NCBI RefSeq assembly: GCF_000022265.1
Contig: NC_011979.1
Span: 2,610,001-2,642,000, forward strand
Reading direction: 5' to 3'
Length of the DNA stretch: 32,000 bases
From: Geotalea daltonii FRC-32
GTDB lineage: Bacteria; Desulfobacterota; Desulfuromonadia; Geobacterales; Geobacteraceae
A model generated the notes under the pieces. The model searched no databases and had not been told where the DNA came from. It worked only from the letters and a program-made list of their open reading frames with translations. This document shows, piece after piece, positions 2,052 through 26,242 of the stretch; the stretch's first letter is position 1; every line of letters starts with the position of its first letter. The translations under genes and the position numbers were made by a program.

Positions 2052-2086
2052 TTGGCTCAAGCTTTCAAAACGAAAACAAGAAAGTG

Positions 2087-8601: not shown

Positions 8602-8656
8602 ATTTGAACGTCGACGGTTCACATGGCTTTAATTTTGAACTTGCAACCTGAAAAAA

Positions 8657-8692
8657 GGCCCATACAAGATTTTCTTGTATGGGGCCTTTTGG
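8657..8692 (+). terminator. Rho-independent terminator of the surface-protein gene
   Basis: GGCCCATACAAG, loop, CTTGTATGGGGCC (one bulge), followed by TTTTGG. Confidence 0.75.
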
Positions 8693-8752
8693 TGTGAATC
8701 TGTATGATCTTTTGTCGTTAGCATCTTGAGTTTCATCGGAAGGAAATGAAAG

Positions 8753-8791
8753 GGGGGCGGGATGACCTGCGAAAGGTCAATCTCTGCCCCC
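8753..8791 (-). terminator. Candidate terminator downstream of the 53-codon ORF
   Basis: On the minus strand, GGGGGGC...GCCCCCC encloses a nested GACCT/AGGTC hairpin and is followed by TTTCATTT. Confidence 0.5.
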
Positions 8792-8810
8792 CATAAGACC
8801 GAAGCGGTCC

Positions 8811-8972
8811 CTAATGTTTATTCATGGCAAGTAGAAACTCCATCACGCCGAGAAGATTCACCAGCCTCCTGAACAATCTGTTTTTCTCCTGAATACTTCC
8901 TGCAGTTCGCAGCTTTTTCTTTAATAACTGAATCTGTTCCTGGACGAGATCTAGGGGATAAAGCGCCTTCAT
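8811..8972 (-). CDS. Small alpha-helical protein (53 aa), below the ORF-track cutoff
   Basis: Hand translation gives MKALYPLDLVQEQIQLLKKKLRTAGSIQEKNRLFRRLVNLLGVMEFLLAMNKH*. GGAGG lies 5 nt upstream of the ATG (GGAGGTGACAATG). TATAAT (8993-8988) and TTGACA (9027-9022) hexamers lie upstream but 28 nt apart; TTGACA-17 nt-TAACTT is the alternative pairing. A terminator-like hairpin lies downstream. Confidence 0.5.
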   Translation of the reverse strand: MKALYPLDLVQEQIQLLKKKLRTAGSIQEKNRLFRRLVNLLGVMEFLLAMNKH

Positions 8973-9059
8973 TGTCACCTCCGTGAGATTATAAAGATAA
9001 GTTAATCATCCCGGAGCATCTTGTCAAGGCCGCCAGCAGCCGATTCGTACCTTCATTTT

Positions 9060-10058
9060 TCACTTCTTTGCCGGAAAGACTATGGCCAAGCCCTTGTCAT
9101 TCCGGTCAATTCTGTAGGAGGGAAAATTGCTTCCGTCAGCATCGAAAACCATGCGGACTTTGTCTGGGTAATTACCGACACGTGCCTTTGACAACCCGAA
9201 GCGTCGCAAGGGGATTTCTTTCGCTGCCAGAGGGGTTTTGCTCATGGGCACATCTATTACAAGCCGGGCCGGATTGATCAGGGTAAAGGCTTTATAGTCA
9301 TCCAGCCGTGAATTGGCCGCAATTTCCAGGCTATTGTTATTGATGCGGATCCCATTGATGGTGCGGGACGGATTGGGCTGCGGCACGACCGGCAGCAGTA
9401 TGCGTTTGTCAGCTGGAAGGGTTTTCAGTGGCTCCGGAGCTGGTGCGGCGGCTACTTTTTCGACGGCAGAACCGGGTATTGCAGCTGCCAGCGGCTGAGA
9501 GACTGGTATCGGGACGGGGACAGGGGCAGGAACTGACACGAGGGCAGCGGTTTCAGGGACTCCGACAGGGGCAGCGGCAGAGTCTTCAAGTATTTTATCG
9601 TGCATCTGTTCTGCGTGGCTATCTTCTGTTTTCCCGGTCACAGTTTCACTGCTCCTGGGCCGAAAGCTAACCATCAACCTGGACCTGTCGCCTGCATCGG
9701 GATGAACCGAAAAATCGGCGTCCGATTCCAGATTGATCACGATTCTGGTCAGTGAAAAGGTTGTTACCTCTTTTTTCTCAACGGTTATTTTGGATATGAG
9801 ACCGGAACTGGAGATGACTGGGCTTACCTCGCCAGGATCAACGAGGGCCAGGTCGATAACAACCTTAAGCAGGTCCGGCATGCGGTAATAGGTGTAGGTG
9901 AGGGGACTGTCGGCGATGATTTCCATATGGGCGCCAGAACCTGGTCTTGAGACACGCACGTCTTGCAGGGTAGGATTGGATTTGGCGAGAGCAGTGCCGT
10001 TAAGGCCGGAAAATACGAGAAACATCCACACCAAACAAAGGGATCTGAAGTTTTGCAT
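9060..10058 (-). CDS. Secreted protein with two AMIN domains joined by a Pro/Ala-rich linker
   Basis: It has a signal peptide (MQNFRSLCLVWMFLVFSGLNGTALA). AMIN-like modules sit at the N-terminus (VRVSRPGSGAHMEIIADSPLTYTYYRMPDLLKVVIDL) and the C-terminus (IRINNNSLEIAANSRLDDYKAFTLINPARLVIDV...VRMVFD). Confidence 0.85.
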   Translation of the reverse strand: MQNFRSLCLVWMFLVFSGLNGTALAKSNPTLQDVRVSRPGSGAHMEIIADSPLTYTYYRMPDLLKVVIDLALVDPGEVSPVISSSGLISKITVEKKEVTTFSLTRIVINLESDADFSVHPDAGDRSRLMVSFRPRSSETVTGKTEDSHAEQMHDKILEDSAAAPVGVPETAALVSVPAPVPVPIPVSQPLAAAIPGSAVEKVAAAPAPEPLKTLPADKRILLPVVPQPNPSRTINGIRINNNSLEIAANSRLDDYKAFTLINPARLVIDVPMSKTPLAAKEIPLRRFGLSKARVGNYPDKVRMVFDADGSNFPSYRIDRNDKGLAIVFPAKK

Positions 10059-10112
10059 GATGAATTCTCCAATGCATTAAAATAGTGTAACTGTAATAGC
10101 CAACGGTGATAC

Positions 10113-10138
10113 AGAAAAGGCGAAGCCGGGGCTTCGCC
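10113..10138 (-). terminator. Rho-independent terminator after the dodecahaem cytochrome gene
   Basis: On the minus strand, GGCGAAGCC / GGCTTCGCC forms the stem and is followed by TTTTCT. Confidence 0.7.
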
Positions 10139-10170
10139 TTGTTCTTTCAAGGGGCTTTATTGTTTCACTT

Positions 10171-11193
10171 TTACATTTTGTGGCATTTCTCGCAGTCTCC
10201 TGCTACCGAGAAGGCATCCTTGGCATTGTGGCATGCGCCGCAGGATGCGCCGCTTTCCATCTGGCCCATGGTAGCGTGCTTTGCGCCGGCCTTATAGGGG
10301 AAAACCTTGGTGTGACAATCTATACATTTGTACATGCCCAGATGGAAATCATGACTGAAAGTTGCGTCCCCTGAGTCGGTCTTGAAGGTAATGTTGCCAG
10401 GCTTGAACCCTTTGTGGCACTTGTCGCAATCACCGCTGGAGGAGAAGGCTTCCTTGCCGTTGTGACATGCACCGCAGGATTTTCCCTTCCCCATGTCTTC
10501 CATGGTGAAGTGCTTTGCACCGGCCTTGTATGAAAAAATCTTGGTATGACAATCCTTGCAGCTGAACATTCCGGTGTGGACTTTATGGCTGAAGGATGCA
10601 GCACTTATACCCTTTGTTTTGAAGGTTAGCTCCTTCGGAGTCATACCCTTGTGGCAGTTACCGCAGTTGCCGGCAACAGTGAAGGCTTTGCTGCCGTTGT
10701 GGCATGCGCCGCAGGTTTTGCCTTTTTCCATCTGCGCCATGGTCACACGACCTTCCTTGCCGGTTATGACCTTGCCGTTGTGGCAGCTTTTGCATTTTCC
10801 CCCCAGCGATTTAAGGTGGGAATTGTGGCTGAAAGCTGCGTCTGTGGCACCTTTGACCTTGTAGGTTATATTGCGTGGTTTTCCTTTGTGACAGCGGTCG
10901 CAGGATTTTTCATCGGCAACGCTGAAGGTTTTGACGCCGGAATGGCAGGCGCCGCAGGACTTTGTCTTTTCCATTTCGGCCATGGTGAAGTGGCGGCGCT
11001 TTCTCAGATCAAAGATGGCATTGTGGCAAATTCTGCAGTTGTTGTTGTATTGTTTCAAATGAATGTCGTGACTGAATACGACCGGGTCGGCATTGTCAAA
11101 CTTGAACTGGACGTCTTTGGTTTCCTTTGCCTGACTGAAAAGCGGGGTGGCCAAAAGAAAGAGAAATGCCAGGAGGGTGAGGCGAAGCTGCAT
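10171..11193 (-). CDS. Periplasmic dodecahaem c-type cytochrome made of four c7-type trihaem modules (GSU1996-like)
   Basis: It has a signal peptide and exactly 12 CxxCH motifs (CRICH, CGACH, CDRCH, CKSCH, CGACH, CGNCH, CKDCH, CGACH, CDKCH, CIDCH, CGACH, CEKCH). They fall in four units of about 80 aa, each with F(S)H..H and TM(A/E/G)(E/Q/D)M motifs. Confidence 0.95.
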   Translation of the reverse strand: MQLRLTLLAFLFLLATPLFSQAKETKDVQFKFDNADPVVFSHDIHLKQYNNNCRICHNAIFDLRKRRHFTMAEMEKTKSCGACHSGVKTFSVADEKSCDRCHKGKPRNITYKVKGATDAAFSHNSHLKSLGGKCKSCHNGKVITGKEGRVTMAQMEKGKTCGACHNGSKAFTVAGNCGNCHKGMTPKELTFKTKGISAASFSHKVHTGMFSCKDCHTKIFSYKAGAKHFTMEDMGKGKSCGACHNGKEAFSSSGDCDKCHKGFKPGNITFKTDSGDATFSHDFHLGMYKCIDCHTKVFPYKAGAKHATMGQMESGASCGACHNAKDAFSVAGDCEKCHKM

Positions 11194-14064: not shown

Positions 14065-14895
14065 ATGATCGGTCTGGACAGGATAATAGAAAACGCCCTG
14101 ATGGAGGATATTCATACCGGCGATCTTACCACCCAGGCTGTGATGCGTGAAAACAGGGCAATGCGTGCCACGCTGAAAGCCAAGGAGAACCTGGTCTTGG
14201 CCGGTATCAAGGTCGCCGCCCGTGTCTTTCACATTCTCGACAATTCCATTATCTTCGATGCACATTTCGCCGACGGTTCCCGTATCGAGAAAGGGGCCAC
14301 ACTGGCGGAAATCTCCGGCGACGCTTCCTTTCTCCTCCAGGGGGAGCGGGTTGCCCTTAATCTTTTGCAGCGCATGTGCGGAGTGGCAACCCAGACTGCT
14401 GCCTATGTGGAAGCTGTCAAGGGGACCGGCGCACGAGTGGTGGATACGCGCAAAACGACCCCGGGGCTGAGAATTCTGGAAAAATATGCCGTCAGGATCG
14501 GCGGCGGTATCAATCACCGCACCGGTCTTTACGACGGAATTCTGATCAAGGAAAATCATATTGCAGCTGCCGGCGGCATTACCGAAGCGATCAATCGTGC
14601 CAGGGCCTATATTCCCCACACATTGAAGATCGAAGTGGAAACTGAGAACCTCACCGAGGTGACCGAAGCTCTTGCAGCGGGTGCCGACATCATCATGCTC
14701 GACAACATGGATGTAGTGACCATGCGTGAGGCGGTTGCCATGATCGGTGGCAGGGCTCTGACCGAAGCCTCCGGCGGGGTTAATCTGTCCACGGTCAGGC
14801 AGATTGCCGAAACCGGCGTTGATATCATCTCTGTCGGTGCACTGACCCATTCAGTGCGGGCCATGGATATTTCCATGCTCATGGAGGGGTGTTGA
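14065..14895 (+). CDS. nadC: Nicotinate-nucleotide pyrophosphorylase (carboxylating) / quinolinate phosphoribosyltransferase
   Basis: Full-length similarity to NadC: GDLTTQAV, LLQGERVALNLLQRMCGVAT, VVDTRKTTPGLR, GGGINHRTGLYDGILIKENH, KIEVETENL, GADIIMLDNM, EASGGV. Confidence 0.95.
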   Translation: MIGLDRIIENALMEDIHTGDLTTQAVMRENRAMRATLKAKENLVLAGIKVAARVFHILDNSIIFDAHFADGSRIEKGATLAEISGDASFLLQGERVALNLLQRMCGVATQTAAYVEAVKGTGARVVDTRKTTPGLRILEKYAVRIGGGINHRTGLYDGILIKENHIAAAGGITEAINRARAYIPHTLKIEVETENLTEVTEALAAGADIIMLDNMDVVTMREAVAMIGGRALTEASGGVNLSTVRQIAETGVDIISVGALTHSVRAMDISMLMEGC

Positions 14896-15902
14896 AAGGG
14901 ACAAAGCTCCAGACCGCAGACCTGGATAAACAGACCTTCAACCGGCGAATCCTTCAGATATTCAGGGACAGGAAAGGGGATGTGATCTCTGGCGAAGAAC
15001 TGAGCAGCATGCTCGGCATCTCCCGAACGGCCGTCTGGAAGCACATCAAGGACCTGCGCAGGCTTGGCTACACCGTCCTTGCTGTTCCGGCCAGGGGATA
15101 TCGCATGGTATCCTCTCCGGAGCGTCTTGTAGCCGAAGAAATAGCTGCAGGACTTCCGACCAAACGGATCGGCAAAAGAATAATCTGCCTCGAAGAGACT
15201 GACTCCACCAACAATGTTACCTTCAGGCTGGCCGAAGAAGGTACCGCCGAAGGAACGGTGGTCATTGCCGATGCCCAGTCCCGTGGCAAGGGAAGGCTTG
15301 GCCGGTCATGGGCATCCCCCAAAGGGGTCAACCTCTATTGCTCGGTAGTGCTCAGGCCATCGATGCCGCCTGTAGCCGCATCTCAGCTAACCTTTCTCTC
15401 CGTGGTCGCCGTAGCCAGGGCCATCGAGCTTTCAACCAGCCTCAAGGCATGGATTAAATGGCCCAATGACATCCTGATCAATGGCAGGAAGATTGCCGGC
15501 CTCCTCAACGAGATGAGCGCGGAAACGGAAAAGGTGAATTTTGTCGTGCTCGGCATCGGCATCAACATCAACATGCGTCAGGAGCAGTTTCCGACAGACC
15601 TCCGTCATCCTGCCAGTTCGCTGTACATTGAAAGCGGAGCAGAACTGGATCGAAACCGGTTCATCCGTACGCTGCTCAAGGAACTTGATGACCTCTATGA
15701 TGTCTATCTCCAGCGGGGATACGGTCCGGTCAGGGAGGAATGGCTGTCGCGCTCCCAGTTATATGGTCGCAAGGCCCGGATTGACTGCCAGGATCGGACT
15801 ATGACGGGAATTATAAGAGGAATTGACGATATGGGCGCACTGCTGCTCGATCTGGACGGCCGGGAGGAACGTATTCTTTCCGGGGATGTGACGCTGCTGT
15901 AA
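14889..15902 (+). CDS. birA: Bifunctional biotin--[acetyl-CoA-carboxylase] ligase / biotin operon repressor
   Basis: An N-terminal wHTH ([29 protein letters not shown]) is followed by the ligase core ([36 protein letters not shown]). The GTG start overlaps the end of nadC by 7 nt. Confidence 0.93.
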
Positions 15903-15912
15903 TGGGGGAAAT

Positions 15913-16683
15913 GTGCTTCTGGTAATTGACGTTGGCAACAGTAATATTGTTCTGGGAATCTATGACGGAGACAGCCTTGTCAGGGACTGGCGCGTATCTA
16001 CGGATAAATCAAAGACTACCGACGAGTACGGCATCCTGGTACATGAGCTTTTCCGATTGGCGGGTATCGATTTTTCCCGCATTACCGATATAATTATCTC
16101 TTCTGTCGTGCCGACTCTCACGGGAGTGCTGGAGAAGCTTTCCCTGCAGTATTTCGACTTCAAACCATATGTAGTCGGGCCCGGCATCAAGACCGGCATG
16201 TCCATCCACTACGATAATCCCAAGGAAGTGGGAGCCGACCGCATAGTCAATGCCGTCGCCGGGTACGAAAAGCACCACACTGCCTTGATCATTGTCGATT
16301 TCGGCACTGCCACCACCTTTGATTATGTGAACAAGCGGGGTGAGTACTGCGGCGGGGCCATTGCCCCCGGTCTCATGATATCAATGGAAGCGCTGTTTCA
16401 GAAAGCGAGCAAACTGCCTCGAGTGGAGATTACAAAACCACCGGCAATAGTTGCTAAAAATACGGTCAACTCCATGCAGGCTGGCATTTTTTACGGTTAT
16501 GTGGGGCTGGTTGACGGAATCGTGACAAGGATGAAGGGAGAGGGTAAGGAAAATCCGAAGGTTATCGCCACCGGGGGGCTTGCCGGACTGATCGCGCCGG
16601 AATCCACTACCATCGAGGAAGTGGACGAGTATTTGACCCTGGAGGGACTGCGGATACTGTACCAGAGAAACCGGGAGAGTTAA
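15913..16683 (+). CDS. coaX: Type III pantothenate kinase
   Basis: [27 protein letters not shown] and [12 protein letters not shown] are characteristic CoaX motifs. It has a GTG start and the conserved birA-coaX synteny. Confidence 0.95.
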
Positions 16684-16747
16684 GGGAGGTACTGCAGTTT
16701 CCCTGCGGCCTCGACTTTAACGTTTACCTATTTAATAAGGGGGGCGT

Positions 16748-18841
16748 ATGGGAAAGTATGACACTGCAAAGTTGAGAAACCTTGGTATTGTCGCTCACGG
16801 CGGGGCCGGAAAAACCTCTTTAACTGAAGCGATCCTTTTCAATGCGGGCATGATTGACCGACTGGGCAGGGTTGACGACGGTACCTCCACAATGGATTTC
16901 GAACCGGAGGAGGTCAAGCGCAAGATCACGATTTCCTCATCCCTCAATCACTGTGAATGGAACGGGTATTCCATCCATATCGTCGATACTCCCGGCTACG
17001 GCAATTTTATTGCCGATACCCGTTCCTGCATGCGGGCCCTCGGTGGGGCGGTCCTGATCCTGTCAGCCATTTCCGGGGTCAAGGTTCAGACGGAAGAAGT
17101 GTGGGAGTGGGCTGATGAATTCGAAATACCGCGTATAGCATTTGTAAACAAGATGGACCGGGAGCGGGCCAGCTTTTTTCGCGCCATAGATGATATGGAA
17201 AAGGTGCTCGGGGTTAAAGGCGTTGCGATCCAGTTGCCCATGGGGGCGGAGGATAATTTCAGCGGCGTCATTGACCTGGTAAAGATGAAGGCCTATCGGT
17301 ATGAAAAGGACCTGTCCGGCAAGTTCACCGAGGGAGAAATTCCCACCGAATATCTGGACGAGGCCAAGAAGCTCAGGGAGCAGATGGTGGAGACTGTTGC
17401 CGAGGCCTATGATTCCCTTACCGAGAAATACCTTGAGGCGGGTGAATTGACAGAGGAAGAGATAATCGACGGTTTGCGGGTCGGTACCCTTCGCTACACC
17501 TTTACCCCAGTTCTATGCGGCTCCGCTGTGATGAACATCGGCATAGGCCAGCTTCTGGATTATATCTGCAACTGTCTGCCTTCGCCACTGGATCGAGGCA
17601 GCGTAGTGGGGACCAATCCGAAAACCGGCGATGTGGTAGAGCGTTCTCCCGACGAGAACGAACCCTTTTCCGCCCTGGTTTTCAAGACGACTTCCGATCC
17701 CTACACCGGAAAAATCACCGTTTTCAGGGTTTATTCCGGCACGCTCAACTCCGATTCCACCGTCTTTAATTCTACCCGGGATTGTACCGAGCGGATAGGT
17801 CAGATATACGAACTGGAGGGGAAGAAGCAAAAGCCGATCAAACAGGCTGTTGCCGGGGATATCGTTGCCGTATCGAAACTCAAGGATACCCTGACCGGCG
17901 ACACCCTCTGTGATCCTGATAAACCCATAGTCTATGAACCTGCAAAACCCTTGCAACCGGTCATTTCCTATGCCATTCTGCCCAAGACCAAAAACGACGA
18001 AGACAAGATTCACGGCGCCCTGCAGAGACTCATGGAAGAGGACCAGACCCTTGAGGTCCACCGTGATGAAAAGACCCGCGAGCTGGTCATATCAGGCATG
18101 GGGCAGGTGCACCTTGAGGTCACCGTAGAGAAGCTGAAACGCAAATTCAGTGTCGATGTTGAGCTGAAGACGCCCAAGGTGCCTTACCTGGAGACATTCA
18201 AAGGGATGGCCAAGGTCCAGGGCAAGTACAAGAAGCAGTCGGGTGGGCGTGGTCAGTATGGGGACTGCTGGGTCGAGTTCAGCCCGCTGCCCCGCGGAGA
18301 AGGCTTCCTCTTTGAGGATAAAATAGTTGGGGGTGTTGTTCCTCGCCAGTATATTCCAGCTGTGGAAAAAGGCATTTTCGAGGCTTCCCAGGAGGGTTTT
18401 CTTGCCGGATACCCCCTGGTCGATTTCAAGGCGGCTCTCTATGACGGCTCTTTTCACACGGTGGATTCATCGGAGATGGCCTTCAAGGTTGCCGGCTCCC
18501 TTGCCCTGAAAAAAGCCATGGAAACGGCTAAGCCGGTATTGCTCGAACCGATCATGAACATGAAGATCACGGTACCGGAAGAGACCATGGGCGATGTCAT
18601 CGGTGACCTGAATTCGAGACGCGGCAAGGTCGTCGGTGTGGAGCCGAAAGCCAATTCGCAAATTATCAGGGCGGTAGTGCCCATGTCCGAAGTGCTTGCC
18701 TATTCGTCGGACCTGCGGTCCATGACCAGCGACCGCGGCCTTTTTACAACTGAATTTTCCCATTATGAAGAGGTGCCGGGGCATCTGGCCCAGAAAATTA
18801 TCAGCGAGTCTGCAGCAAAGCAAAAACACGCGAACCATTAG
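16748..18841 (+). CDS. fusA: Elongation factor G paralogue (EF-G II-like) with divergent G-domain motifs
   Basis: The five-domain EF-G architecture is recognisable throughout (FVNKMD, KKQSGGRGQYG, SSEMAFK). G1 is AHGGAGKT rather than AHIDAGKT. The G3 region is DTPGYGNF rather than DTPGHVDF. Confidence 0.93.
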   Translation: MGKYDTAKLRNLGIVAHGGAGKTSLTEAILFNAGMIDRLGRVDDGTSTMDFEPEEVKRKITISSSLNHCEWNGYSIHIVDTPGYGNFIADTRSCMRALGGAVLILSAISGVKVQTEEVWEWADEFEIPRIAFVNKMDRERASFFRAIDDMEKVLGVKGVAIQLPMGAEDNFSGVIDLVKMKAYRYEKDLSGKFTEGEIPTEYLDEAKKLREQMVETVAEAYDSLTEKYLEAGELTEEEIIDGLRVGTLRYTFTPVLCGSAVMNIGIGQLLDYICNCLPSPLDRGSVVGTNPKTGDVVERSPDENEPFSALVFKTTSDPYTGKITVFRVYSGTLNSDSTVFNSTRDCTERIGQIYELEGKKQKPIKQAVAGDIVAVSKLKDTLTGDTLCDPDKPIVYEPAKPLQPVISYAILPKTKNDEDKIHGALQRLMEEDQTLEVHRDEKTRELVISGMGQVHLEVTVEKLKRKFSVDVELKTPKVPYLETFKGMAKVQGKYKKQSGGRGQYGDCWVEFSPLPRGEGFLFEDKIVGGVVPRQYIPAVEKGIFEASQEGFLAGYPLVDFKAALYDGSFHTVDSSEMAFKVAGSLALKKAMETAKPVLLEPIMNMKITVPEETMGDVIGDLNSRRGKVVGVEPKANSQIIRAVVPMSEVLAYSSDLRSMTSDRGLFTTEFSHYEEVPGHLAQKIISESAAKQKHANH

Positions 18842-18861
18842 CATGAGGAGGAATTGTTACA

Positions 18862-19920
18862 ATGTCCAAGCAGTTTTCAGCGGATTCAGAGGAAACCGAA
18901 CTTAAGGGATCAAAAGGTAAAAGCCAGGCCCAGCTTCTTGTCCTGTTGCTGCTGGTTGCGGTCGGCGGATACGTCTATTTTTTCACCGGATTGATCAAGC
19001 CCCGTGAAGAAACGCCCAAACCCCAGCCGCCACAGGCTGCCCAGGTGAAAAAGCCGATGCCGCCCCGGCAGGCCGAACAAACGCCGGCAGCTGCTAAACC
19101 TGAACAACCCAATTCCGCGGCAGCTCCTGCTCCTGTACCTGCATCTTCATCTCCTGCCCCTGCTCAGACTGCCGGTGGACAGAAAACTGCTCCAGTGCAG
19201 AATCCGGCCAAACCTGAACCGGCTAAAACAACTAAAAACCAGGCACCTGCTGTACCGACGGCTCCCGGCAAACAGGCTGCTGCAGTTCCTGAAAAGCCAG
19301 GCGGCAAAAAGACAGCCAAAGATGCTGCTCCGGCCAAGACGACAGACAAAGTCGCTGCTCCTACTGGCAAGCCGACGACTGTTGCAGGAAAAACTGCTGC
19401 TCCAGCCGTGGAAAAGCAGCAACAGCCGACGGCCAAAAAAGTCGCCGGCGCTTTCAGTCTGAAAACCGGGGAAATCGTTTTCGCCAAGGATGCAGGTGCA
19501 GTGGAGGCAAAGCTGAAAAAGGCGGGCCTGAAGCCTGTAGTACGGCATACAACCATGATGCAAGAGCCCATGAACAGGCTCTTTTACGCCGAGTATCCCG
19601 ACCGAGAATCGGCAGGCGTCGACCTGGAACAACTCCGTGCCAAGGCTCCCGATGCCTTTATCATTCAGGAGGGCGGCAAGTATGTTATCTATGCAGGTTC
19701 GTATCTAAAGGAAGCCCGTGCAGCCATTGAGCAGGACCGGCTTTTCGATAAAGGGTTGCGGCTGGTGATGAAAAAGACCCAGGTGAAGATCCCGGTCACC
19801 TACATTACCGCCGGCAGCTTCCCCAGCCAGGATGATGCCCGCAAGGCAGCCGACAGGCTGAAGAAGAGCGGAATCAAGCTGGCTGTGGTCAAATCCGGCA
19901 AAGTGTCGATCAAAAAGTGA
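18862..19920 (+). CDS. SPOR domain-containing membrane protein with a long Pro/Ala/Lys-rich linker
   Basis: It has one N-terminal TM segment (LLVLLLLVAVGGYVYFFTGLI) and about 150 aa of low-complexity PAK-rich linker. Two C-terminal SPOR-like modules follow (FSLKTGEIVF...LKKAGLKPVV; YITAGSFPSQDDARKAADRLKKSGIKLAVV). Confidence 0.85.
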   Translation: MSKQFSADSEETELKGSKGKSQAQLLVLLLLVAVGGYVYFFTGLIKPREETPKPQPPQAAQVKKPMPPRQAEQTPAAAKPEQPNSAAAPAPVPASSSPAPAQTAGGQKTAPVQNPAKPEPAKTTKNQAPAVPTAPGKQAAAVPEKPGGKKTAKDAAPAKTTDKVAAPTGKPTTVAGKTAAPAVEKQQQPTAKKVAGAFSLKTGEIVFAKDAGAVEAKLKKAGLKPVVRHTTMMQEPMNRLFYAEYPDRESAGVDLEQLRAKAPDAFIIQEGGKYVIYAGSYLKEARAAIEQDRLFDKGLRLVMKKTQVKIPVTYITAGSFPSQDDARKAADRLKKSGIKLAVVKSGKVSIKK

Positions 19921-20813
19921 CCCAAAAAATCACCTTGAGAATGTCAGCCGCGGCTGCTCCATATGTACGGCCCGATACCCCTGGCGAAATCAGGCTTCAA
20001 GCAGCCCGCGGCCAGGTCTCTCTTGGTGCCTCAGACATGGTGGTGCTCCTTTATTTCCTGACCCACGACAATGATGCCGAAATAAAACATGCCGCACTAA
20101 AGTCCCTGCGAGACCTGCCCGAGGCCGTACTCCACGAGGTGGTCCAACTTTCGGAAACAAACGGAAAAATCCTGGATGTCATCGCCCGACTCCATTTTTC
20201 AAAACTGGCTGTTGCGGAAAAAATCACCATACACCCCAATTGCAGCGAGGCTACCTGTGACTTTCTCGTGGGAAAAGGGGTGCAGGACCTGCGGGGGCGG
20301 GTGGGAATGGAAGAATGCAGCAGCCCGGGTGTCGGTGATGTGGATGAAGACGCCGAGACCGCTGACGACGAAGTGATAAACGAAGAAGATGAGGAATTTA
20401 AATCCAAATACCAGCTGTCCCAGCAGTTGGGGGTTTCGGAAAAGATAAAGATGTCATTGACAGGTGACAAGGAATGGCGTTCCATTCTCATCAAGGACTC
20501 CAACAAGCTGGTCTCCGGTGCGGTGGTGAAAAATCCCCGCATTACGGAAGCCGAAATACTTGCCATCTCCAAGTCGAAGATTCAAAACGATGAGATCATG
20601 CGTGTTATCTGCGCCAATAAGGAATGGACCAAGAACTACATGATCAAGAAGGCTCTGGTGGAAAACACCAAGACGCCATTGGCCGTGGCACTACGCTTCA
20701 TGGGAACCCTGACGGAAAAGGACCTGTCAGGTCTGGCGAAAAGTAAGAATGTATCCTCGGTTATTGCCACCCAGGCACGCCGGGTTCTGCTGAATAAAAG
20801 CAAAAAAAGCTAG
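19917..20813 (+). CDS. Alpha-helical repeat (HEAT/LRV-like) protein with a central acidic linker
   Basis: The GTG start overlaps the SPOR gene stop as GTGA; ATG at 19941 is an alternative. An acidic stretch (GDVDEDAETADDEVINEEDEEF) separates two helical halves. The C-terminal half has repeated NP.IT.AEIL / N..T.....AL motifs like LRV/HEAT repeats. Confidence 0.7.
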   Translation: MTQKITLRMSAAAAPYVRPDTPGEIRLQAARGQVSLGASDMVVLLYFLTHDNDAEIKHAALKSLRDLPEAVLHEVVQLSETNGKILDVIARLHFSKLAVAEKITIHPNCSEATCDFLVGKGVQDLRGRVGMEECSSPGVGDVDEDAETADDEVINEEDEEFKSKYQLSQQLGVSEKIKMSLTGDKEWRSILIKDSNKLVSGAVVKNPRITEAEILAISKSKIQNDEIMRVICANKEWTKNYMIKKALVENTKTPLAVALRFMGTLTEKDLSGLAKSKNVSSVIATQARRVLLNKSKKS

Positions 20814-20823
20814 GAGGACGCCA

Positions 20824-21675
20824 ATGGCTCTGGTGAATAATAACAAGCGGGAAATAAATGCCAAGTTGGTCTACTATGGCCCTGGGCTATCGGGGAAAAC
20901 GACCAGCCTGAACCACGTTTACGCCAAATTGAAGCCGGAGTTCCGGGGACAGCTGAAGACAATGAATGTTCAGGCTGACAAGATGTACTTTTTCGATTTT
21001 ACTCCCCCCGGTGATGCCAACGTGAACGGTTACAGTGTTCGTCTGCACATATATACGTTGAAAGGTGAGCCGGCCGGTCCCGCTCCCTGGAAAATGGTGC
21101 TGAAAGGAGTGGACGGCATCGTTTTCGTTGCCGATTCGGCCCCGGAGAAAATGGCTGCTAATCGGGAAAGCCTGCAAAACCTGGATGAATTTCTGAGAGG
21201 ATTTGGACAGTCTATTTCTGATATCCCCCTTGTCTTTGCCTACAACAAGCGTGACCGCGCTGATGCGGTTCCGGTGGAAGAGATGCAACGGATGCTGAAT
21301 CCCCGCAATCGTCCGGGAGTTCCTGTAGCGGCCAATAAAGGTGAGGGGGTTCTCAATGCCCTGCTGACCCTGGTCAAGATGGTACTGAAAAAGCTGCGTG
21401 AAGAGGGTGCTGGAGAGAAAAACATCTATGAGCCTGCTTTCCAGCAGTCAATTGCTGTACAGGGCGATGAAGACATCAGCAGATATGCGGTAGAGGATGA
21501 ACTTGTTACTGAAACCGGAACGGGTTCCCTTTTGCCGGCCGGCGAAGGAGCCGAACCCGAAATCTCCTTTTTCGGTAATGCGGAGATATTGGGCAACGGG
21601 CACATGCGCCTGCCGTTGGTCATAAGTTATGGGGGCAGGGAAAAAACTGTCACCCTGGATCTGAAACTTGGCTGA
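20824..21675 (+). CDS. MglA-family Ras-like small GTPase paralogue with substituted catalytic residues and a roughly 90-aa C-terminal extension
   Basis: Residues 1-82 align without gaps to Myxococcus MglA as recalled (REINAKLVYYGPGLSGKTT, FFDF, LKGVDGIVFVADS, YNKRD). MglA R53/T54/Q82 are K53/M54/E82 here. The protein is 283 aa against about 195 aa for MglA. Confidence 0.85.
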   Translation: MALVNNNKREINAKLVYYGPGLSGKTTSLNHVYAKLKPEFRGQLKTMNVQADKMYFFDFTPPGDANVNGYSVRLHIYTLKGEPAGPAPWKMVLKGVDGIVFVADSAPEKMAANRESLQNLDEFLRGFGQSISDIPLVFAYNKRDRADAVPVEEMQRMLNPRNRPGVPVAANKGEGVLNALLTLVKMVLKKLREEGAGEKNIYEPAFQQSIAVQGDEDISRYAVEDELVTETGTGSLLPAGEGAEPEISFFGNAEILGNGHMRLPLVISYGGREKTVTLDLKLG

Positions 21676-21696
21676 TCAAATCTGGAGATAGGTAAC

Positions 21697-22380
21697 ATGT
21701 CTTTGGCTGTTGATGTGGAAATGGTAGTTCGGCTTCTCCTCGCATCACTGTTGGGTGGGATCATAGGCCTGGAGAGAGAGATTCACGGCAGGCCTGCCGG
21801 TTTCAGGACCCATCTCCTGGTTTCTCTTGGTTCATCCCTCTTTGTGGTTTCTTCCATTGAATTTTACTGGGTCTTCGGCAATTTCAACGGCACTTTGCCG
21901 GTGGGTGTCGATCCGGGAAGGGTTGCCGCCCAGGTTGTAACGGGAATCGGTTTCCTTGGTGCCGGGGCCATAATCAGGGAAAATGCTTCCGTCAGGGGAT
22001 TGACAACCGCAGCCTGTCTCTGGATTGCGTCTGCCATTGGTATTGCCTGCGGCATCGGACTTTTCGGTATTGCCTCTGTTGTAACTGGAATTTCTCTTGT
22101 CAGCCTGCTGTTCCTGAAGAGGATCGAGCGTGTGCTTGCCCGGGATGTTTATGCCACGGTAAAAGTATCCGGTAATGACCGGGAAGGGCTGATTGCCGAC
22201 ATGGAAACGCTGATGAATAAGAATAAGCTGGAGATAACTGCCGCCAGAATCGAGAAGAATATTGAAGAAAAACTGATCCACGTGGAGTACGATCTCAAAC
22301 TTAGCAGCCGCAACGAGATTTTTGCCCTGATTGATAAAATCGCCCTTGTAACCGGAGTCAAGAAAGTAAGTTTTACCTGA
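21697..22380 (+). CDS. MgtC/SapB family membrane protein
   Basis: It has the MgtC N-terminal signature LLGGIIGLEREIHGRPAGFRTHLLVSLGSSLF, several TM helices and a soluble ACT-like C-terminal domain. Confidence 0.9.
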   Translation: MSLAVDVEMVVRLLLASLLGGIIGLEREIHGRPAGFRTHLLVSLGSSLFVVSSIEFYWVFGNFNGTLPVGVDPGRVAAQVVTGIGFLGAGAIIRENASVRGLTTAACLWIASAIGIACGIGLFGIASVVTGISLVSLLFLKRIERVLARDVYATVKVSGNDREGLIADMETLMNKNKLEITAARIEKNIEEKLIHVEYDLKLSSRNEIFALIDKIALVTGVKKVSFT

Positions 22381-22418
22381 GAAGGTTTCGCAGGGCCAGA
22401 CCGAATTTAGCAAATGTC

Positions 22419-22447
22419 TTGTATACAGAATATTTACATGCTAATAT
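22419..22447 (+). promoter_or_regulatory. Sigma-70 type promoter overlapping a 7-bp inverted repeat
   Basis: TTGTAT (22419-22424), a 17-nt spacer, then TAATAT (22442-22447). The inverted repeat GAATATT-N8-AATATTC spans the spacer and the -10 element. Confidence 0.5.
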
Positions 22448-22477
22448 TCGGCAGTTTTCTAATGAAAGGAGATGAGA

Positions 22478-23299
22478 ATGGCGATCGTTACCATATCCAG
22501 ACAGATGGGCACTGGTGCATATGCAATGGCCAAGGAACTGTCGAAAAAGTTGAAATATACACTGATTGATGGACCCAAAATTGCGGAGCTGGCCAAAAGT
22601 TATGGGTTGGCAGAAGATATTCTGGAGAGGGTCGATGAAAAACCTCCCGCTTACATAACTGCAGAAGACAGGCTGCAGGCTGCCAACCTGAGCACCATGG
22701 AACTGATTCTGCTGGATGCTGCCAGAAAAGGAAATGTGGTTATGTATGGCAGGGGAGCCCAATATCTTCTTGAGGGCATGACCAACGTCCTGCGGGTGCG
22801 CATCATAGCACCCTTTGAGGAAAGGGTTGAAAATCTTGCCGAACGCGAATGGATCGACCCTGATCTGGCCCGCGACCTTATCCGCAGGAGCGACCACCAG
22901 CGTGGCGGCTTCACCCATTTTTATTTCGACAGGGACTGGCAAAGCCCTTTTGAATATGATCTTGTGTTCAACACCTCTCGACTGTCAAAGAGCGCTATCG
23001 TCGAAGCCATTGTTGCTGCGGCCAAGGATCCTAAACTCAAAGAAGGGGAGGCCGACCTGACTTCCCACCTTGATGATCTTATCCTGCGCAAACGGGTGGA
23101 GGTTGCACTGCTGAAATCAGGCAAGATCGGTAGCCTGCACTTCAAGATCGAGTGTATGGACGGAGCGATCTCCCTGACGGGCCATGTGCATAACGATGAA
23201 GAGCGGGAAGAGGCTGTGAGAATTGCCGAAAAGGTCAAAGGAGTAAAACAGGTGGACGATGATCTCCAGGTGATGAATTACCAGCATCACCTGGAATAA
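22478..23299 (+). CDS. Cytidylate kinase-like family protein fused to a C-terminal BON domain
   Basis: The N-terminus MAIVTISRQMGTGAYAMAKELSKKL is typical of the cytidylate-kinase-like (AAA-type) family. The C-terminus (ISLTGHVHNDEEREEAVRIAEKVKGVKQVDDDLQV) is BON-like. ATG at 22478 lies 6 nt after AAAGGAG and is preferred over 22472. Confidence 0.8.
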   Translation: MAIVTISRQMGTGAYAMAKELSKKLKYTLIDGPKIAELAKSYGLAEDILERVDEKPPAYITAEDRLQAANLSTMELILLDAARKGNVVMYGRGAQYLLEGMTNVLRVRIIAPFEERVENLAEREWIDPDLARDLIRRSDHQRGGFTHFYFDRDWQSPFEYDLVFNTSRLSKSAIVEAIVAAAKDPKLKEGEADLTSHLDDLILRKRVEVALLKSGKIGSLHFKIECMDGAISLTGHVHNDEEREEAVRIAEKVKGVKQVDDDLQVMNYQHHLE

Positions 23300-23330
23300 A
23301 TGCGGTTCCATTGATATTGAATTGAAGCTG

Positions 23331-23358
23331 AAAGGCCCCTTACCAAGGGGCCTTTTTT
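23331..23358. terminator. Bidirectional rho-independent terminator between convergent genes
   Basis: AAAGGCCCCTT, loop ACC, AAGGGGCCTTT, followed by a T-run. It sits between the stops at 23299 (+) and 23371 (-). Confidence 0.8.
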
Positions 23359-23370
23359 CATTTTGCGTTT

Positions 23371-24213
23371 TTAAAGATGGTGCATGTTTTTCAGGGCAGT
23401 TGCCAAGGTATGGGGAATGGCCAACTGGCCACGTCCACTGCCCATCTCGATACCGCCCTCGATGCCATGGAAGTCGGAGCCACCGGTAGCTGCAAGACCG
23501 AGATCTTCGGCAAGCCTGGCAAGAAAGGCAGACTCATCGGCATTGCACATATTATTGTAGACCTCGACTCCCTGGAGCCCTTTTCCAGCCAGCTTGCCTA
23601 TGACAGTGGCAAGTACCTTTCTCTCTTCGCTGATGCTTGTGGGATGAGCTAACACGGCAATCCCCCCCAGTCTTCTTATTTCTGCCAGTGCTTCATCCAT
23701 GGGAAAATAACGCTTTGGTTCATCGCATGGGATAAGGTAACGCTCGAAAGCATCCTGCATGTCCTTTGCATACCCCCTGTTTACAAGCACGCGGGCAATG
23801 TGAGGCCTGCCGAAGGCGCCATCAGCAAAGTTTACCGCTTCGTCATAGGTAATGGCCTCTTTTTTCTCATGTTGGAGTTTTACATTGATATTGGCGATGA
23901 TGGCCTGGCCCCGCTGGTCCCGGATGGTGCGGAATTCAGCAAGCTTGTCGAGAAATATCCGGTCCCGGTGGTCAATCAGGTAACCCAGAAGGTGAACGTC
24001 CTGGTAAGTGTCGAACTGCACCGACAGTTCGACGGCCGGAATCACTTCCACATTCCGGCTTTGGCCTGCTTCAAGTGCCTCGTCGATACCGGCGACGGTA
24101 TCGTGATCGGCCAGGGCAATGGTCTTAAGTCCTTTTGCTGCAGCCATGGCCACCAGCTCGGCCGGCTTGTAAATGCCGTCGGAATAGGTTGAGTGGATAT
24201 GAAGATCTATCAT
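23371..24213 (-). CDS. PHP-domain phosphoesterase (TrpH/YciV, RNase AM-like)
   Basis: MIDLHIHSTYSDGIYKPAELVAMAAAKGLKTIALADHDTVAGIDEA, AHP and GGSDFHG are PHP metal-binding motifs. The start is placed at Met36 of the tracked ORF (ATG at 24213), where similarity begins. Confidence 0.88.
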   Translation of the reverse strand: MIDLHIHSTYSDGIYKPAELVAMAAAKGLKTIALADHDTVAGIDEALEAGQSRNVEVIPAVELSVQFDTYQDVHLLGYLIDHRDRIFLDKLAEFRTIRDQRGQAIIANINVKLQHEKKEAITYDEAVNFADGAFGRPHIARVLVNRGYAKDMQDAFERYLIPCDEPKRYFPMDEALAEIRRLGGIAVLAHPTSISEERKVLATVIGKLAGKGLQGVEVYNNMCNADESAFLARLAEDLGLAATGGSDFHGIEGGIEMGSGRGQLAIPHTLATALKNMHHL

Positions 24214-25264: not shown

Positions 25265-25374
25265 AGGAGTTGCCGCTGATTTTTTAATCTATTATGGCTT
25301 GTCTCGGCGGCTGAGAGGTTGTAAACTTCATATCCATGACATGAAGATGTAATTTATTATTGCGGGAGGCCATT

Positions 25375-26242
25375 ATGTTGAGAAAGCTTGGTTTTATCGG
25401 TTTGGGTACTGTCGGCAGGCATATGGCTGCCAATCTGACAAAGGCGGATTATGATCTCACTGTCTATGACGATGATGCGGAACCGCTAAATGAGCTGGTC
25501 AAGCTGGGAGCAAAAGCTGCCGCAACCCCCCAGCGAAGCTGCAAAGGGCAAAGATCTTGTTATAGTCATTCTTCCCGAGAGTCATGGATTGGAAACGTTC
25601 GTCTTCGGCAAAGATGGAGTTCTCGAAGGGCTCGATCCCGGTACGATATTGGTGGATATGGGTACCCACTCCCTGGAAACAACCTTGAAACTTGCCGACG
25701 AAGCCATAAAACGCCGGGTGATGTTCCTGGAAGCGCCGGTGTGGGGAACCAAGGAGCATGCTGCCAACGGTCTGGTGACCATTCTTGCCGGCGGGGATCC
25801 TTCCCTGCTCGGGCGTTGCCGCGAAACATTCTCCTATTTCGGTCTTAACATCATCCATATCGGCAAGATAGGCGATGCCACCAGGATGAAATTCATCGTC
25901 AACCTGGTGCAGGCCGAACTGATGCAATCTTTGGCAGAGGGCATCGTCTTTGGCGAGAAGCTTGGCTTTACTGCCGATAAAATTCTCGAAGTACTCGATT
26001 CCGGCGGCGTTGCTTCGCCTCTCTTCCATTCCAAGGGGCGCAGCATAGCTAGGGGGGATTTCAGTCGTAATCTCGCTCTCAAATATGTACACGAACAACT
26101 TCTTTTGGTTATGGATGCTGCCAGAAAGGTTAATTTGGATCTCCCCGGAGCGGAAACGGCCTGCAAACTCTACGAACAGGCGGTGCAGGATGGCCGCGGC
26201 GAAGAAGACTATTCCGCTGTGGTTAAAGTCTTGAGAAAATAA
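25375..26242 (+). pseudogene. NAD(P)-dependent beta-hydroxyacid (3-hydroxyisobutyrate/6-phosphogluconate family) dehydrogenase, interrupted by a +1 frameshift
   Basis: The Rossmann N-terminus (KLGFIGLGTVGRHMAANL...LGAKAAATP) is in one frame. The rest of the family-typical sequence (SEAAKGKDLVIVILPES...GKIGDATRMKFIVNL...) continues in the +1 frame. The switch is at a C6 run (25526-25531); a C5 run would restore a single ORF of about 288 aa. RBS GGGAGG lies 5 nt before the ATG at 25375. Confidence 0.8.

Follow-up and report, generated by a model that had tools for sequence, protein, structure and literature searches.

What becomes of a bacterial polarity switch when the residues that run its GTPase cycle are replaced, and why would such a protein be encoded directly behind a helical-repeat protein and a peptidoglycan-binding membrane protein? 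These questions are raised by three adjacent genes of Geotalea (formerly Geobacter) daltonii FRC-32, Geob_2387-2389, which lie on the + strand of the window analysed here (the whole stretch of 32,000 nucleotides, nt, from contig NC_011979.1, with coordinates counted from its first letter). In this order, they encode a bitopic SPOR protein (18862-19920, 352 amino acids, aa; assigned to Geob_2387 by position), a two-lobed alpha-solenoid protein called HEL hereafter (19917-20813, 298 aa; 100% identical to Geob_2388) and a long paralogue of the GTPase MglA with degenerate catalytic residues (20824-21675, 283 aa; Geob_2389). The SPOR stop codon and the GTG start of the HEL gene share the letters GTGA at 19917-19920, a 4-nt overlap, and the next junction is a gap of 10 nt (20814-20823), with an AGGAGG Shine-Dalgarno sequence lying across the HEL stop codon ahead of the GTPase ATG. 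The GTG start agrees with the conserved N-termini among HEL homologues. The reading favoured here, to which we give a probability of roughly 45%, is that of a conserved cassette built around HEL as an adaptor, with the SPOR protein as a landmark and a pseudo-GTPase as a scaffold. The original prediction, made from the letters alone, had described the tight packing, the membrane anchor and two SPOR domains of the first protein, the helical repeats and acidic linker of the second and, in the third, a gapless alignment to MglA with an intact P-loop and NKRD motif, three substituted functional residues and an extension of about 90 aa, and in these descriptive points it is borne out by the analyses that follow.

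The relationship of Geob_2389 to MglA is close. A phmmer search of the PDB aligned it to Myxococcus xanthus MglA with an E-value of 1.4e-51 and without gaps over residues 1-197, well past the residues 1-82 that had been aligned before, and the AlphaFold2 (AF2) model superposes on the GDP-bound MglA structure 6hjo with a target TM-score of 0.95 and a root-mean-square deviation of 1.2 Å (Foldseek). When compared with the MglA proteins of M. xanthus and Thermus thermophilus (5ymx, 6hjo, 3t12), the window protein is 46% identical, gapless over 195 residues, and has the same fold, including a TxxG instead of a DxxG motif, the beta0 strand, the FFDF sequence of beta2, the P-loop and NKxD. Both the P-loop, G19-P-G-L-S-G-K-T-T27 (20878-20904), and the G4 motif, N141-K-R-D144 (21244-21255), are intact. 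In contrast to MglA, the codons AAG ATG at 20980-20985 place K53 and M54 where the Arg finger R53 and the switch-I Thr54 should be, and the codon GAG at 21067-21069 places E82 at the position of the catalytic Gln82; the phmmer alignment agrees with the codons and restores none of the three ancestral residues. The G3 motif, T78-L-K-G81, keeps the TxxG start of Group 1 proteins (Thr or Ser in 118 of the 120 closest database homologues, which are Geobacteraceae-like where named) and has lost the remainder of the TVPGQ consensus. In MglA, R53 acts as an intrinsic Arg finger, T26 and T54 coordinate Mg2+ and the gamma-phosphate, and hydrolysis is abolished by Q82A and strongly reduced by R53A (Miertzschke 2011, PMC3199381). 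Geob_2389 should not hydrolyse GTP at an MglA-like rate, to judge from these residues, and it probably still binds nucleotide, since GKTT and NKRD are intact. As a Group 1 MglA, it thus shows the expected similarity and fold, the bacterial insertion between G1 and G2 included, as well as TxxG, the P-loop and NKxD, and lacks R53, Thr54, Gln82 and a nearby MglB (one encoded within about four genes); orphans count as accepted members of the group, and the absence of MglB is not disqualifying.

The degeneration extends far beyond this one protein. It was followed in the 120 closest homologues and in 65 unique GTPase orthologues found in the same gene order, which were gathered via HEL (the syntenic orthologues). 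Position 54 is Met in all 120 close homologues and M, L or I in all 65 syntenic orthologues. At position 53, Arg is present in 105 of the 120 and Lys in the other 15, with Arg in 28 of the 65. Glu occupies position 82 in 65 of the close homologues, the rest having P, Q, D, A or L, and the syntenic orthologues are still more varied (E in 19, P in 9, K in 8, R in 6, N in 5, and others, with Gln in about 4, or 6 by one count). Even the nucleotide-binding motifs have decayed. Position 26, the Ser/Thr of the P-loop, is Ala in 55/120 close homologues and G, A, R, V, D or N in about 40 of the 65 syntenic orthologues (Ser/Thr in about 23), and NKxD is destroyed in 17/65, reading for example NGST, NSFT, NSFI, NESC, TGAG, SQHE, CNDD or NRFE. 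A pure 'K-M...E' signature, after the substitutions for which the original prediction proposed a neighbourhood survey, was dropped, as neither K53 nor E82 is conserved and only the loss of Thr54 is constant: K53 is a minor variant, and T54M the invariant change among close relatives. What the degenerate clade does keep is the beta0 sequence MALVN..KREINAK, the FFDF of beta2, the block WKMVLKG.DG.VFVAD and a C-terminal core, G..R[LIV]P[LI].

The origin of this clade is suggested by a locus outside the Geobacteraceae-type synteny (L094), where the GTPase encoded behind HEL is fully canonical (DRT...TVPGQ, NKRD), 56% identical to MglA and 49% to Geob_2389. Its 120 closest relatives (P0408-P0527), of 262-408 aa and from metagenome-assembled genomes labelled as Deltaproteobacteria, Candidatus Dadabacteria and others, are canonical without exception (T26, RT, TxxGQ and NKxD in 120/120), and the C-terminal tail of those inspected is rich in beta strands and in many cases carries the same xIP motif. 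Such a tail also accounts for the extension of Geob_2389, whose 88 aa past the MglA domain comprise a disordered linker (aa 197-241, 21412-21546; predicted local distance difference test score, pLDDT, below 50), variable and rich in Pro, Ala and Glu, and a predicted four-strand beta module (aa 246-281, 21559-21666; strands 246-249, 254-257, 260-269 and 272-281, pLDDT 79-92). The module follows the pattern ...G..E..G.G..RLPL.I..G.R.K.V.L.L.L, with G251, G259 and P264 invariant and GHMRLPLVI in the window protein, and it recurs in the syntenic orthologues, in the GTPase of another divergent locus (L095) and in the canonical long relatives. Geob_2389 therefore has the plan of a long-MglA family, that is, a G domain joined through a variable linker to a beta module that measures about 40 aa and contains the core G..[RK][LIV]P[LIV]. 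Other members share this plan and a position 3' of HEL, and in L094 also of a SPOR gene; unlike them, the window clade has lost T26, R53-T54, Q82 and NKxD. Because the long-MglA relatives are canonical throughout, the Geobacter lineage can be seen as a degenerate offshoot, and the most economical reading of the sequences is that the Geobacteraceae-type branch of a widespread long-MglA switch family dropped the catalytic constraint and, in many members, the nucleotide-binding constraint as well.

What distinguishes a pseudo-GTPase, the loss of motifs with retention of the fold and of non-catalytic surfaces, is seen here both in the sequences and in the AF2 model, and it is very probable that the lineage is one of pseudo-GTPases. 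Its conserved function would not require hydrolysis, because position 82 varies and orthologues are found in which NKxD or the Ser/Thr of the P-loop is gone, and in many members it would probably not depend on guanine-nucleotide binding either. The Arg finger and the G1-G3 motifs have been stated to be conserved in all Group 1 members (Wuichet & Sogaard-Andersen 2015, PMC4316618), a universality that, as judged from the alignments, does not hold for the Geobacteraceae-type branch. The gene itself is not new, and the claim that the trio was undescribed has to be divided: no mention of the trio or of its locus tags was found in the searched literature, but the GTPase had been catalogued. Geob_2389 appears in a supplementary table as an orphan Group 1 MglA ('MglA>'), in a genome that has, besides it, a canonical MglA of 195 aa paired with MglB (Geob_0373) and another orphan, of 221 aa (Geob_3508), and one such long orphan of 270-305 aa is listed for each Geobacter and for Pelobacter propionicus (GSU1930, Gmet_1982, Gura_2812, Glov_1322 and Ppro_0659; PMC4316618). 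In G. sulfurreducens the orthologue, NP_952979, has 291 aa and no MglB; it figures in the 'Group II: MglA2' list of Fremgen et al. 2010 (PMC3000849), and the long-MglA family probably includes these 'MglA2' proteins. In keeping with the orphan label, no Roadblock/MglB-like ORF (open reading frame) was found in the window by Pfam scans of the larger ORFs and by single-sequence phmmer, a search of limited sensitivity. The pseudo-GTPase character and the architecture of long MglA with a beta module appear to be undescribed in the searched literature, where no bacterial MglA-type pseudo-GTPase was found.

On the other hand, the original prediction had seen in Geob_2389 a GTP-locked or otherwise regulated paralogue of MglA, linked to septal peptidoglycan through the SPOR protein. 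As a GTP-locked switch, it would bind GTP without hydrolysing it and stay permanently 'on' towards MglA-type effectors, with the SPOR protein and HEL as its localisers. The orphan MglA of Bdellovibrio bacteriovorus, which reportedly works without MglB, would be a precedent for this. For the window protein itself the idea has some substance, since GKTT, T78xxG81 and NKRD are intact, and MglA deprived of Q82 or R53 still binds GppNHp and MglB; moreover, Mg2+ adds little to the nucleotide affinity of MglA, so that T54M need not block binding (Miertzschke 2011, PMC3199381). As an account of the lineage it is too narrow, however, as the decay of the P-loop Ser/Thr and of NKxD in the syntenic orthologues means that the function of the family cannot require a GTP-bound state. 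In addition, the sensing of the gamma-phosphate and Mg2+ by switch I would be compromised without Thr54, so that an 'on' state may be structurally undefined, Glu82 would set a negative charge near the gamma-phosphate, and the AF2 model lies nearest to GDP-state structures, which is a weak indication. A GTP-locked switch is for these reasons unlikely, even if it is the best placed of the alternatives to a pseudo-GTPase scaffold.

The protein that precedes the GTPase belongs to a family of its own. No Pfam or NCBIfam family, including the HEAT, ARM and LRV repeat models, matched HEL above threshold, and sub-threshold HEAT or HEAT_2 matches are confined to a few of its relatives. The AF2 model (built from a 48-sequence alignment, pLDDT 85) shows two all-helical lobes, residues 14-120 and 159-297, with the stacked helix pairs of a HEAT/ARM solenoid; Foldseek found only generic HEAT/ARM solenoids (probability up to 0.99, E of 2e-3 or higher, low TM-scores), and a sequence-profile search of the PDB gave nothing meaningful. 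The N-lobe (aa 14-120, 19956-20276), made of helical repeats (helices 23-119 with pLDDT above 90), is moderately conserved, with BLASTP identities of 20-44% to family representatives. It is followed by an acidic linker (aa 129-152, 20301-20372; pLDDT below 50), disordered and variable in both length and sequence, and by the C-lobe (aa 159-297, 20391-20807), the best-conserved part, where the invariant and near-invariant columns cluster (GDKEWR...KNPRITE...ANKEW...LAKSKNV) and identities to all 157 representatives range from 37 to 77%. A profile search against 1.84 billion cluster representatives (clusters at 50% identity) retrieved 3593 clusters at E of 1e-3 or lower and 713 at 1e-30 or lower, with the same plan of N-lobe, variable linker and highly conserved C-lobe, and with Candidatus Binatota and Candidatus Alcyoniella australis among the named members. 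The long members (921-970 aa: P0284, P0306 and P0393) carry two to four PATAN domains (PF14332, also DUF4388 or PatA_N) N-terminal to both lobes and end in the same C-lobe; the Pfam scan found no PF14332 in the HEL of the window, and PATAN was seen only in the long fused relatives, P0316 included. In the searched literature, the HEL family, which lacks a Pfam model or a solved relative, appears undescribed, as does its association with SPOR proteins. A role of the trio in anti-phage defence was also considered and dropped, as none of the three proteins had a PADLOC match.

The genomic company of HEL gives the strongest evidence that it works with MglA-type proteins. Eighty metagenome loci of the survey came from a 13-sequence HEL alignment and represent the closest 80 of 377 matches, a sample biased towards Geobacteraceae-like genomes; a scan of genome contigs with the single GTPase sequence gave one near-identical locus only, in G. 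toluenoxydans. Where the flank reaches 700 nt or more, which is so in 82 loci, a GTPase gene lies directly 3' of HEL in 72, separated by a median of about 15 nt; a SPOR gene lies 5' of HEL in 65 of the 73 loci with sufficient flank, at a median distance of 6-7 nt, and several of these pairs, that of the window included, overlap by 4 nt. About 70 loci show the arrangement of the window, birA-coaX-EF-G-SPOR-HEL-GTPase. In five others (L008, L062, L087, L091 and L093), EF-G and SPOR genes precede a HEL of 340-353 aa and the GTPase is absent. Three loci (L095-97) have birA-coaX-HEL-GTPase, devoid of EF-G and SPOR, with a 332-aa GTPase that shows TT...PGN at the catalytic positions and the same C-terminal module. 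The three genes also co-occur, as SPOR-HEL-canonical long MglA, in L094, outside the Geobacteraceae-type synteny, and the survey thus supports a conserved co-occurrence of the trio. In L007, a 924-aa fusion of PATAN domains to both HEL lobes (8001-10775) is followed by Roadblock/MglB and MglA genes, and in L010/11 a PATAN-HEL fusion lies directly 3' of a CheA-like gene (6001-8913 in L010). In distant lineages (L012/13 and L099), the gene 3' of an EF-G-HEL pair encodes a protein of about 170 aa whose transmembrane anchor is C-terminal, and in L098 and L100 HEL is solitary.

Since an MglA-type gene stands beside HEL in four distinct contexts, together with the PATAN fusion, and since PATAN genes have been reported beside those of MglA and MglB (Makarova 2006; Wuichet & Sogaard-Andersen 2015, PMC4316618), it is likely that HEL and MglA-type proteins work together. 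HEL rather than the GTPase looks like the hub, as a very large family that recurs beside MglA-type genes, membrane-anchored proteins and EF-G II. Neither the GTPase nor the SPOR protein would be an obligate partner, because HEL occurs without either. In any case, a membrane anchor for HEL fits the data, because the SPOR-HEL pair persists in the absence of the GTPase and the place beside HEL is taken by a different small membrane protein where SPOR is missing. The two proteins of about 170 aa concerned (L012:4116-4622 and L099:6234-6755; 31% identity, E 7e-21, no Pfam family) combine a soluble N-terminal part with hydrophobic segments near the C-terminus, and they sit in the 'membrane partner' position held by the SPOR protein in Geobacteraceae. 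The Candidatus Alcyoniella locus (L099) also holds two large PATAN/REC/TPR/DnaJ proteins alongside.

The SPOR protein itself is assigned with confidence by Pfam (PF05036, E 1e-13, 51.8 bits against a cut-off of 21, two matched stretches), and hydropathy and composition give its layout: a Lys-containing N-terminal tail of 23 aa, one hydrophobic segment at about 24-44, a linker of about 150 aa rich in Pro, Ala, Lys and Thr (residues 45-195), predicted to be periplasmic, and a tandem pair of SPOR domains (at about aa 197-270 and 271-344; 19450-19893), which coincide with conserved blocks of the orthologue alignment. Of the two, 271-344 is the better match, spanning profile positions 2-76; the first domain can be delimited only roughly. 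Conservation is also strong at the other end of the protein, in the cytoplasmic peptide (aa 1-23), the transmembrane helix (aa 24-44) and a juxtamembrane motif, YVYFFTGLIKPR (together 18862-19005). Nearly all of 56 unique SPOR orthologues keep the motif LLLxLLLxxxxxGYLYFFTGLIKP[RQ] and a start of the type M[DS]x[KQ]F (cytoplasmic starts such as MDFKFSKD or MSKxF..D), and the linker is not conserved. We propose this region as a candidate contact for cytoplasmic or membrane partners. Extended peptides are the typical ligands of solenoid proteins, which makes the cytoplasmic tail, by analogy, a plausible candidate for a HEL-binding motif. The known ligand of SPOR domains is denuded glycan, which occurs at the septum and the new poles, and from this established biology the protein is expected to localise to septal and new-pole peptidoglycan. 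The chances that it is a functional partner of HEL and the GTPase are about even. Another protein with a septal-peptidoglycan targeting domain is encoded about 9 kb from the SPOR gene; it has 332 aa, and its AMIN domain is C-terminal (9060-10058, - strand). AMIN domains are found, for example, in AmiC and PilQ.

Put together, these data would fit a mechanism in which the SPOR protein serves as a marker of division sites and new poles, its N-terminal peptide and/or its transmembrane and juxtamembrane segment recruits HEL, and one lobe of HEL holds the long MglA. The ancestral long MglA would have been a normal switch, with T26, R53-T54 and Q82 all present, and the Geobacteraceae-type G protein would have become a constitutive, hydrolysis-independent scaffold subunit, no longer a timer. 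The physical contacts, the localisation, the nucleotide state and the cellular process, presumably polar or septal organisation, are all inferred here; by analogy, the candidates for the process are polar organisation and type IV pili, as with MglA, SofG and SopA, or septal wall synthesis, as with FtsN and DedD. A septal or polar landmark role is accordingly put forward as tentative. A more ambitious version is doubtful, in which HEL would be a general family of MglA partners across several phyla (effector, regulator or tether, possibly including SopA) and, in Geobacteraceae, would assemble with the SPOR protein and the pseudo-GTPase into a landmark across the envelope, one that senses septal peptidoglycan and holds polar machinery, such as type IV pili, in place with no GTPase cycle.

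Several observations weigh against the adaptor-landmark-scaffold cassette. Glu82 is conceivable as an alternative catalytic residue, although its lack of conservation speaks against that, and the likeness of the AF2 model to GDP-state structures is no evidence on the real nucleotide state. The SPOR protein offers just about 23 cytoplasmic residues for any contact. The whole neighbourhood, birA-coaX-EF-G-SPOR-HEL-GTPase-...-PHP, is syntenic in the Geobacteraceae-type loci, which makes adjacency within this group weak evidence, as it may reflect inheritance, and the 80 metagenome loci are not independent of one another. Finally, HEL is found without the GTPase (L008, L062, L087, L091 and L093), without SPOR (L012 and L099) and alone (L098 and L100).

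The synteny feeds directly into a second alternative, in which HEL and the long MglA would cooperate and the SPOR protein and EF-G II would be no more than neighbours inherited with a housekeeping operon (birA, coaX, fusA2 and others), with no coupling to peptidoglycan. A neighbourhood of 8-10 genes is indeed conserved in all Geobacteraceae-type loci, HEL-GTPase pairs exist with neither SPOR nor EF-G (L095-97), EF-G-HEL pairs exist with no SPOR gene (L012 and L099), and the intergenic gaps are short throughout the run, so that those of the trio are unremarkable. Yet the adjacency of SPOR and HEL outlasts changes in the GTPase and the downstream genes (L008, L087 and L093) and recurs in the separate lineage of L094, a different membrane-anchored protein adjoins HEL where SPOR is absent, which suggests that a membrane partner is needed, and the cytoplasmic start and transmembrane motif of the SPOR protein are conserved though its linker is not. 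Mere inheritance of the SPOR and EF-G genes is thus rather improbable, somewhat more so than the GTP-locked switch.

A third possibility is that the SPOR protein is a Geobacteraceae counterpart of the late division proteins FtsN and DedD, modulated from the cytoplasm by HEL and the pseudo-GTPase, in place of or beside FtsA-type contacts, so that the trio would serve septal synthesis and not polarity. The likeness to FtsN, DedD and DamX lies in the general architecture: a bitopic protein with its short N-terminus inside, one transmembrane segment, a low-complexity periplasmic linker (Pro/Gln-rich in this comparison) and a C-terminal SPOR domain, with a conserved juxtamembrane segment where FtsN has its essential region. 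Geob_2387 differs from them in its two tandem SPOR domains, its distinct conserved transmembrane/juxtamembrane motif, YLYFFTGLIKPR, and its gene context; no division genes were seen near the trio in the window, and the known relatives of the G protein serve polarity and motility. A divisome accessory is in our view improbable.

The last alternative arises from the gene that precedes the trio, an EF-G paralogue (16748-18841, + strand; Pfam and NCBIfam EF-G domains) that ends 20 nt 5' of the SPOR gene. Its AHGGAGKTS P-loop and relaxed G2 fit the EFG II subfamily (Margus et al. 2011). Where DTPGH would have its catalytic His, the protein has Tyr (DTPGYGNF versus DTPGHVDF), as do 47/47 syntenic EF-G orthologues; two distant ones have Asp (L012:552-2651 and L099:2863-4953), and there EF-G still adjoins a HEL-family gene. 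The locus thus holds, side by side, two G proteins whose catalytic residues are altered. It is possible that EF-G II is a fourth member of the module, or that an EF-G-HEL functional link exists, which ranks lower because HEL also occurs without EF-G and its links to PATAN, MglB and MglA are more specific. That HEL is first of all a partner of EF-G II in translation or at the ribosome, with the MglA-like and SPOR genes as lineage-specific additions lacking a common mechanism, is the least probable of the readings, for although EF-G adjoins HEL or is separated from it only by SPOR (Geobacteraceae-type, L008-type, L012 and L099), its clade has itself lost the catalytic His, and HEL has its top Foldseek match in deoxyhypusine hydroxylase, an enzyme of two HEAT lobes that acts on a translation factor (E 2.4e-3, TM-score 0.21), this match is generic, no His/Glu metal site is conserved across the HEL family, HEL lacks EF-G in L007, L010, L095, L098 and L100, and the PATAN fusion and MglB-MglA adjacency indicate G-protein signalling.

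A cassette of HEL adaptor, SPOR landmark and pseudo-GTPase scaffold has partial parallels among known systems. SofG (MXAN_6703), an MglA paralogue of M. xanthus, positions PilB and PilT with the bactofilin BacP. Like Geob_2389, it is an orphan Group 1 paralogue of similar length (298 aa) with a dedicated scaffold instead of an adjacent MglB; however, no bactofilin gene accompanies the trio, and the extension is C-terminal in Geob_2389 and N-terminal in SofG, which retains the Arg finger and GTPase activity. The Bdellovibrio MglA is said to act through the TPR protein Bd2492 and RomR, and to be a protein of 197 aa with no extension that keeps residues of the R53/T54/Q82 type; its helical-repeat partner is thus a TPR protein and not a member of the HEL family. 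The resemblance to PATAN proteins lies in the HEL lobes fused C-terminal to PATAN directly 5' of MglB-MglA (L007) and in the PATAN proteins beside EF-G-HEL (L099), whereas the HEL of the window has no PATAN domain and the HEL lobes are undescribed in the searched literature. SopA (MXAN_0371) resembles HEL in architecture only, with conserved folded ends, a disordered and unconserved middle and no known domains. It is a cytoplasmic protein of about 400 aa that regulates type IVa pili in the MglA/SgmX/FrzS network of M. xanthus, reportedly restricted to Myxococcales and not encoded beside a GTPase, and a relation to HEL is a lead only. Among eukaryotes, the pseudo-GTPases Rnd, RhoH and CENP-M have kept the G-fold while their catalytic and, at times, nucleotide-binding motifs decayed, and act as constitutive scaffolds or adaptors, as is proposed here for a different branch of the superfamily and different organisms.

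With regard to the surroundings, the claim that the trio forms a module needs qualification: the genes are packed and co-occur, but they are not a free-standing unit, being embedded in a co-directional run, birA-coaX-EF-G-SPOR-HEL-GTPase-MgtC-CMK/BON, with run gaps of 20-91 nt. A hairpin resembling an intrinsic terminator (23330-23356, + strand), with a 12-bp GC-rich stem and a T run, lies 3' of the CMK-like/BON gene and likely ends this transcription unit; as the sole long-stem + strand candidate within 14500-23600, some 9 kb, it points to a long unit that starts at least from the EF-G gene. The gene for an MgtC/ACT membrane protein (21697-22380, + strand; Pfam MgtC and ACT_4), 21 nt 3' of the GTPase, is probably a facultative insertion in the operon and not part of the conserved cassette, because an MgtC match is missing in about 24 otherwise syntenic loci (for example L046, L048, L051, L057, L061, L065, L073, L084 and L089), the downstream flank being available in at least 16 of them.

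Elsewhere in the window, a 3-hydroxyisobutyrate-dehydrogenase-like NAD-binding gene (25360-26242, + strand) is broken across two overlapping frames, with NAD_binding_2 profile positions 1-56 in ORF 25360-25848 and positions 48-161 plus NAD_binding_11 in ORF 25490-26242. Related genomes have a single gene of 285-290 aa, so that the apparent frameshift reflects either a pseudogene or a sequencing error. A 485-aa ORF (2084-3541, + strand) joins 5'-3' exonuclease N- and C-terminal domains to an RNase H domain, which is an unusual fusion. Two multihaem cytochromes, one of 340 aa with four cytochrome c7-type domains (10171-11193, - strand) and one of 283 aa with paired CXXCH motifs (3765-4616, + strand), are typical Geobacteraceae content.

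A last question concerns what such a cassette would mean. MglA is the model of a Ras-like spatial switch in bacteria, and its logic rests on the GTPase cycle run by MglB and RomR/RomX. If the reading proposed here is true, the Geobacteraceae-type proteins would be a bacterial pseudo-GTPase and would reveal the surfaces of MglA that matter once switching has been removed. HEL, in turn, becomes a specific candidate for a new component of MglA signalling in bacteria other than Myxococcus, and its link with the SPOR protein suggests a route by which a periplasmic cue, the denuded glycan of the septum, may reach a cytoplasmic polarity module. Orthologues of the three genes, GSU1930-1932, are present in the genetically tractable Geobacter sulfurreducens, and pili and polarity bear on the extracellular electron transfer of these bacteria.

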